Assembly (NCBI RefSeq): GCF_963921235.1
Contig: NC_086097.1
Coordinates: 83,826,001-83,890,000, forward strand
Reading direction: 5' to 3'
Length of the DNA stretch: 64,000 bases
DNA from: Mobula hypostoma
Taxonomy: Eukaryota
The notes under the pieces are model-generated. The model saw only the letters and a program-made list of their open reading frames with translations. It did no database searches and was not told the DNA's origin. The translations under genes and the position numbers were made by a program. Position 1 is the first letter of the stretch. Each line of letters starts with the position of its first letter. Of this stretch, positions 16,515 through 16,891 are shown in pieces.

Positions 16515-16600
16515 ACATTGTGGGTACAGCTCGTCCGGATGAGAAGGCAATCATGACTTATGTCTCTAGCTTCTACCATGCATTTTCAGGAGCCCAAAAG
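16515..16600 (+). CDS. ACTN1: ACTN1 exon 8a (86 nt): [29 protein letters not shown]
   Basis: Acceptor ttcctgacag|AC, donor AAG|gtatcc; phase 1 to 0; inside ORF 16379..16648. Confidence 0.95.
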
Positions 16601-16805
16601 GTATCCCAGGAATCCATATTTTCCAGCAGAAATTGCTTCTCTGGCTAATTATATATTTTTCTTCCCTGTTCTGCAGCTGCTATTTGTGAACTTTCCACTC
16701 TTGATATGATCTCCTGTGTTGCATGATGGGAACAGTGTGGTTCTTCGCTGACTGTGTCTTGGCTTACCTTTACTTCCTTAATCTTTTCTTGTCTTCCTTG
16801 TACAG

Positions 16806-16891
16806 ATTTAGTAAACACGCTTAGGCCGGATGAAAAGGCCATTATGACCTATGTTTCATGTTACTACCATGCGTTCTCAGGTGCGCAGAAG
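16806..16891 (+). CDS. ACTN1: ACTN1 alternative exon 8b (86 nt): [29 protein letters not shown], presumed mutually exclusive with 8a
   Basis: Long pyrimidine tract then tacag|AT, donor AAG|gtgaga; same length and phase as 8a; 24/29 aa identical; no stop codons. Confidence 0.9.

Follow-up and report, generated by a model that had tools for sequence, protein, structure and literature searches.

A frame-exclusive exon 8 pair in ACTN1 of Mobula hypostoma: real, conserved and already known

The 64,000-nucleotide stretch of Mobula hypostoma DNA analysed here (hereafter the window, with positions counted from its first letter) is best explained as a whole, at a probability of roughly 0.9, as exons 6–18 of ACTN1 with a mutually exclusive pair of homologous exons, 8a and 8b, that predates the vertebrate ACTN duplications. 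The exon pair is real, it is conserved, and it is already known. Its presence in Mobula hypostoma fits the published picture, in which the ACTN1 copy was lost in mammals, and as a discovery it matters little because RefSeq models already include the pair and a 2015 paper describes it in ACTN1 of other fishes. As an illustration it has modest value: this one genome is a clean example of a bilaterian-age splice switch that survives in three of four vertebrate paralogues.

The exon pair and its reading frame

The gene model is built on tblastn matches to a bird ACTN1 protein, with subsequent GT/AG junction scoring (Table 1), and its spliced translation comprises 590 codons without a stop. The window contains only part of the gene, namely the last part of CH2 and everything from there to the end of the rod. 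The 894-aa model that equals the window translation contains two Pfam CH stretches, four Spectrin stretches, EF-hand families and EFhand_Ca_insen; exon 8 corresponds to residues 228-256 of this model and Pfam CH2 to residues 147-252, and each exon 8 copy accounts for the final ~25 residues of the second CH domain and for the beginning of the neck. GC content is raised to 0.48-0.50 (window mean ~0.42) in window 30001-36000, around exon 10 and the introns on either side of it, where GC skew is +0.19 to +0.32.

Table 1. Coordinates of the ACTN1 exons in the window and of the other ACTN loci of the Mobula hypostoma genome (a slash marks an exon border)
Feature	Position	Strand	Basis and remarks
ACTN1 exon 6, constitutive, CH2 domain	6670..6748	+	tblastn to bird and skate ACTN1; acceptor tttcag/T, donor AAG/gtcagg
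ACTN1 exon 7, 82 nt	12866..12947	+	donor 12947 joins 8a or 8b; junction scoring
Exon 8a, 86 nt	16515..16600	+	end of CH2 domain and start of neck; read from sequence, translation, junction scoring
8a-8b intron, 205 nt	16601..16805	+	pyrimidine-rich tract; branch-point-like CTTAC/TTTAC ~16763-16773; TGCATG 16720-16725
Exon 8b, 86 nt	16806..16891	+	alternative copy; donor AAG/gtgaga; sequence, translation, codon count
ACTN1 exon 9, 93 nt	26275..26367	+	acceptor 26275 takes 8a or 8b; site of premature stop when exon 8 is left out
Constitutive rod-domain exons	32585-32815, 38009-38156, 40213-40363, 45882-45990, 49812-49952	+	tblastn and GT/AG scoring
Further constitutive rod-domain exons	54442-54624, 58979-59113, 61293-61472, 63716-63862	+	tblastn and GT/AG scoring
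ACTN4-like locus (C50)	G000:C50:6846857-6847232		first copy DIVNTAR..SCF, second DIVGTLR..SCYY; spacing 206 nt
ACTN2-like locus (C22)	G000:C22:22705944-22706703	-	first copy DFVNTAR..SCYY, second DIVNTPK..AEQ; spacing 595 nt
Locus C82, possibly ACTN3	G000:C82:6875380-6875460		single TPK..AEQ copy

The two copies of exon 8 are equal in length and phase, clearly homologous and separated by 205 nt. By eye and by junction scoring, both have AG acceptors with pyrimidine tracts and GT donors; as read from the sequence, 8a is bordered by the acceptor ..ctgacag/ACATTG and the donor CAAAAG/gtatcc, and 8b by the acceptor ..cttgtacag/ATTTAG, with a pyrimidine-rich tract upstream, and the donor CAGAAG/gtgaga. 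Counted codon by codon, 8a and 8b differ at 26 of 86 nucleotides (60/86 identical) and at five of 29 residues (24/29 identical), the replacements being I>L, G>N, A>L, S>C and F>Y at exon positions 2, 4, 6, 19 and 20, respectively; 15 of the 29 codons show synonymous differences only, five differ non-synonymously and nine are identical. A preliminary description of this DNA had given precisely these figures for nucleotides (26/86), residues (5/29) and synonymous codons (15), and its outline of the locus, i.e. two 86-nt exons 205 nt apart with a common phase, a pyrimidine tract and the 8b donor, was confirmed from the sequence. The flanking junctions that it had named, 12947 for the exon 7 donor and 26275 for the exon 9 acceptor, were placed at the same positions by junction scoring.

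The reading frame dictates how these copies can be combined. The exon 7 peptide ends in ..DIPKMLDAE, and the last base of the exon, a G, opens an Asp codon that is finished by either 8a or 8b. When the possible routes were computed, the 8a-only and the 8b-only routes both gave an open frame; with both copies included, translation stopped at the second codon of 8b (ATT TAG), and with neither included, it stopped 14 codons into exon 9, such that the frame shift previously claimed for both exons or neither amounts to an early stop in each case. In other words, with stops arising from both copies and from none, the pair is frame-exclusive: the transcript has to contain one of the two copies, and only one.

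Orthology of the gene and age of the pair

Which ACTN gene is this? All ACTN paralogues are highly similar to one another, and this similarity, with nothing else, favours the idea that the gene is ACTN4 or ACTN2, where the exon 8 pair is textbook material, and not ACTN1. We give that idea practically no chance. In a 28-row protein tree (a quick search with SH-aLRT support only, exon 8 columns included, one ACTN2 reference, no ACTN3 references, and own-genome rows that are pseudo-proteins pieced together from tblastn matches), the window falls inside a 13-row ACTN1 clade (SH-aLRT 100) and within a four-row elasmobranch ACTN1 clade (SH-aLRT 100). Four ACTN loci are present in the Mobula hypostoma genome (3.48 Gb, 200 contigs), on contigs C1 (the window), C50, C22 and C82, and the three loci outside the window fill the ACTN4-like, ACTN2-like and fourth positions: in the same tree, C50 joins ACTN4 (SH-aLRT 93), C22 joins ACTN2 (98) and C82 stands alone. 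Additionally, for the least conserved exon, 58979-59113, every named best match is an alpha-actinin-1; an electric ray model matches at 100% identity, four shark models match at 98% and skate matches at 95%. Models named alpha-actinin-1 also agree with the window translation at all 589 of 589 aligned residues. Judged from these sequence comparisons, the window gene is the elasmobranch ACTN1 orthologue. The preliminary description had called it ACTN1 and had proposed asking whether it groups with ACTN4 or ACTN2 instead; the 28-row tree, exon 8 columns included, puts it in ACTN1 with SH-aLRT 100, and all named best matches of exon 58979-59113 agree. On the same contig, ~15 Mb from ACTN1, lies a second gene with a CH domain and spectrin repeats (G000:C1:99203487-99205550, minus strand), which has 34-44% identity to ACTN1 residues 171-475 and may be of the beta-spectrin type.

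The relationships of the 8b peptide point well beyond this species. The 8b of the window is nearer to the 8b of other species (27/29 residues shared with Amblyraja ACTN1 8b and 26/29 with Aquila ACTN1 8b) than to its own 8a (24/29), in keeping with the old duplication under purifying selection that had been claimed for it, and the 8a of the window agrees with the first copy of Aquila and Atractosteus ACTN1 at 29/29 residues. Among the gene models and proteins compared, 8b-type ACTN1 copies occur in elasmobranchs, teleosts, gar, coelacanth, squamates and birds, and insect genes have two copies too. Since the same second copy and its signature residues recur in orthologues across jawed vertebrates, chance is excluded as an explanation. 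The earlier statement that this lineage kept the ancestral switch is too narrow: the ancestral pair has been kept, but not by this lineage alone, as birds, squamates, coelacanth, gar and teleosts have kept it too.

Could the pair nevertheless have arisen by a recent, lineage-specific tandem duplication, or 8b by gene conversion from ACTN4, in place of being an inherited switch? Two similarities within this genome would suit such an origin: 8b is identical at 27/29 residues to the second copy of the ACTN4-like locus, and the inter-copy introns measure 205 nt in ACTN1 and 206 nt in the ACTN4-like gene. However, the ACTN1 8b of Amblyraja is equally close (27/29) and that of a bird close (26/29), orthologous 8b copies are found across jawed vertebrates, and a comparison of the ACTN1 and ACTN4-like inter-copy introns revealed nothing convincingly alike outside the exons. 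A recent duplication is moreover excluded by the distance of 8b from 8a, since 26 of 86 nucleotides differ and most synonymous sites have changed. Either origin is therefore extremely unlikely, and we take 8a and 8b to be an inherited pair.

The homologous pairs of the other paralogues allow this one to be placed more precisely. Across the own-genome loci and the references, first copies share TAR, and second copies share TLR or TPK. The ACTN1 pairs of non-mammalian vertebrates (available text of PMC4494069; RefSeq) involve the same gene, the same exon and the same order, with TAR..SSF in the first copy and TLR..SCYY in the second, and the Mobula hypostoma pair shows no substantial difference from them. 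The ACTN4 8a/8b pair (ACTN4-SpEx8) is homologous and obeys the same 86-nt frame logic; it shares A>L at position 6 and S>C at position 19, and the second copy of the ACTN4-like locus in the Mobula hypostoma genome has Y at position 20, as in ACTN1 8b. The two differ at position 4, where the change is opposite (N>G in ACTN4, G>N in the window ACTN1), and at position 2, where ACTN1 8b, unlike ACTN4, adds I>L; ACTN4 is also a different paralogue, and of these two genes only ACTN4 retains the pair in mammals, with ACTN1 lacking it. The first copy of the ACTN4-like locus reads SCF here and SSF in ACTN4 of other vertebrates. The QKI-regulated ACTN2 8a/8b pair is likewise homologous, and its skipping leads to a premature stop in exon 9, as was computed for the window ACTN1. 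Its copy order is unlike that of ACTN1, with TAR..SCYY first and the muscle-type TPK..AEQ second, and the two ACTN2-like copies of this genome lie 595 nt apart as compared with 205 nt in ACTN1. For the preceding exons 5-7, a search of window 1-17000 and of pieces of the C22 and C50 loci gave no second copy at E <= 5, a search that may have overlooked short and diverged copies.

Against this background, the proposal that the 8b of the window combines features of ACTN2 and ACTN4 loses its special content because L6/C19/Y20 is the normal ACTN1 8b signature, present also in the second exon of the species' own ACTN4-like locus. The DLV that had been given for ACTN2 was seen in none of the sequences compared; the first copy of the own ACTN2-like locus has DFV, and Polypterus has DIV.

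Annotation, published record and use of 8b

The 8b form of ACTN1 is annotated for this very species. RefSeq entry XP_062907996.1 (alpha-actinin-1 isoform X4, Mobula hypostoma, 894 aa) contains the exact 8b peptide between MLDAE and AETAANRI and agrees with the 8b-route translation of the window at 589/589 aligned residues, and isoforms X1 and X3 each agree with the 8a route at 589/589. RefSeq has ACTN1 isoforms with 8b only in Mobula, Scyliorhinus, Stegostoma, Heterodontus, Cetorhinus and Amblyraja, and also in many teleosts; for example, 8b is contained in isoforms X2 and X4 of Amblyraja radiata and in X7 of Cetorhinus. In the models of these six elasmobranch genera, which are computed isoforms, either 8a or 8b is correctly spliced to exons 7 and 9.

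In print, the available text of Abascal, Tress and Valencia (2015, PMC4494069) describes ACTN1 of fugu, spotted gar and coelacanth as having the exon 8 pair and that of human and mouse as being without it, in agreement with the earlier claim of a single exon 8 in mammalian ACTN1, and dates the pair to the bilaterian ancestor. The species named in that text are these fishes and not cartilaginous ones; the elasmobranch ACTN1 pair exists as database annotation only, the literature that we searched having yielded no printed description of it. The preliminary description had presented the pair as hidden, with novelty implied, and had itself noted that novelty would fall if ACTN1 8b were already widely annotated. 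It is so annotated, in elasmobranchs and teleosts in RefSeq, and with 8b-only isoforms in six elasmobranch genera and the pair of fugu, gar and coelacanth in print, the pair can no longer be called hidden or new.

Wider searches returned both forms in abundance. A protein search with the read-through translation of 8b gave 701 matches at E <= 1; among the 120 listed, at least 26 gene models, from birds, squamates, coelacanth, gar and teleosts and mostly named alpha-actinin-1, have a TLR..SCYY copy after one of the 8a type, at least 26 others have an SCYY-type copy alone (25 of these being short open frames from assemblies), and at least 18 proteins have the ACTN4-type pair. A search with exon 58979-59113 brought in 114 further proteins, ACTN1-named or unnamed, of which 13 have 8b only and 66 have 8a only, with the region absent from 35. 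The basking-shark 8b isoform belongs to a cluster of 72 proteins; among the 15 listed, at least five have 8b only (Mobula hypostoma X4, Scyliorhinus canicula X1 and X3, Stegostoma X4 and Heterodontus X6), at least nine have 8a only, and the region is absent from at least one. Several bird alpha-actinin-1 models, some of them in RefSeq, run from 8a through a 13-residue linker, VSQD[PS]K[LI]PPQSTP, into 8b, all in frame; either the bird intron is only ~40 nt long, or these models are prediction artefacts.

Annotation is not the same as use. The two-copy models among the 120 matches listed are often mis-predicted, in that they read through the intron between the copies, and such models are evidence that the 8b sequence is present in the genome but not evidence of its use. 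Might 8b then be an unused relic, a pseudo-exon whose public isoforms are artefacts of homology-guided prediction? The many gene models in which two copies have visibly been joined via intron sequence would fit such a history. The exon itself does not: its frame is intact, as are its AG and GT sites, the pyrimidine tract is present, and its codon differences from 8a are 15 synonymous-only versus five non-synonymous. Moreover, the TLR..SCYY signature has been kept from elasmobranchs to birds and teleosts, and the homologous alternatives of ACTN4 and ACTN2 are used according to experiments reported in the available text of PMC7782589, bioRxiv 10.1101/2024.10.05.616792 and PMC4539665. We consider it very unlikely that 8b is a relic and continue to regard it as the alternative member of a conserved pair.

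Public sequencing runs were also consulted. Of the 19 runs listed as matching 8b (86 nt, six sampled words), 15 contain all or part of it, and the record marks none as RNA. When four runs were mapped on 6600-26500, coverage was swamped by repeats, and the exon joints were absent among the 15 joints listed (426 more exist); some contigs span unspliced intron-exon borders (16300-16542 and 16582-16762) at a depth of 3-6. Three intronic stretches of the window (8232-8485, 12250-12580 and 24238-25420) look, from their read coverage, like high-copy interspersed repeats, with depths of hundreds to tens of thousands, 88-95% likeness and many loose ends in all four runs.

Proposed function and the choice between copies

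What would an organism gain from two versions of exon 8? The closest guide is ACTN4. According to the available text of PMC4539665, ACTN4-SpEx8 carries the changes N249G, A251L and S264C, near the FSGS mutations K255E and T259I at the CH1/CH2 boundary, and opening of CH1/CH2 governs actin binding. The available text of bioRxiv 10.1101/2024.10.05.616792 reports that ACTN4 8B enhances cell migration and cites work in which it enhances stress-fibre formation. By our own mapping, N249G, A251L and S264C correspond to exon positions 4, 6 and 19, and 8a and 8b of the window do not differ at the positions equivalent to K255, T259 and S262. By analogy with ACTN4 8b, the ACTN1 8b isoform would alter five residues at or near the CH1/CH2 interface, and these five changes would tune the balance between open and closed states of the actin-binding domain, and through it actin affinity, in particular tissues. 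Given the effects of ACTN4 8b and the shared A>L and S>C changes, the mechanism that we infer as best supported is a tissue-regulated choice between two CH2 C-terminal helices, which may tune actin affinity. Both the tissue specificity and the altered actin binding suggested here for ACTN1 8b are modelled on ACTN4 and ACTN2.

Molecular mechanistic questions also surround the choice itself; what ensures that a transcript carries one copy and not two? For ACTN2, it has been shown experimentally (available text of PMC7782589) that skipping of exon 8 leads to a premature stop in exon 9 and to nonsense-mediated decay. By the same route, exactly one exon 8 copy would be spliced into mature ACTN1 transcripts, and wrong combinations would likely be removed by nonsense-mediated decay.

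Two other devices were considered and rejected. The first is RNA structure: the region from the 8a donor to the 8b acceptor has a fold no stabler than those of shuffled sequences (z = -0.02), and inverted repeats are weak, the best being 15 nt with 80% complementarity between 16597-16611 (at the 8a donor) and 16757-16771 (in the 8b branch region), which is not significant. In the minimum-energy fold, the 8a donor AAAGGTATCCCAGGA pairs with a U1-like CTTACCTTT near the 8b branch point; this pairing between donor and branch region is probably due to chance because the overall fold is no better than those of shuffles. The second device is steric hindrance, which we reject by inference from distance, the 8a donor being ~165 nt away from the branch-like CTTAC.

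Regulatory motifs around 8a and 8b were scanned as well. No ACUAAY (QKI-type) motif occurs within window 16300-17300, and the scan around the two exons found no UG-rich run. GCATG, with a background of 0.86 per kb, occurs once in the 205-nt ACTN1 intron and twice in the 206-nt intron of the paralogue; matches to (U)GCAUG (Rbfox-type) are at window 16720-16725 and at 1388 and 1458 of the ACTN4-like piece L012, in which the exon pair occupies 1207-1584. The GCAUG nearest to 8b reads GCATGATG in both the ACTN1 and the ACTN4-like intron. The presence of GCATG in the inter-copy introns is suggestive at most and is not significant alone. A far-reaching conjecture, which we regard as rather doubtful, is that the survival of the exon 8 switch at three of the four ACTN loci, the ~205/206-nt spacing and the intronic (U)GCAUG together reflect one shared regulatory programme in place since the genome duplications; such a programme would drive a coordinated, tissue-specific change of actin binding in all non-muscle actinins, and mammals would have simplified it through loss of the ACTN1 copy.

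ACTN1 has another mutually exclusive pair, exons 19a and 19b, which distinguish Ca-sensitive from Ca-insensitive forms and are the pair that mammals keep. That pair concerns the first EF hand instead of the CH2 domain and lies outside the window, which ends at exon 18.
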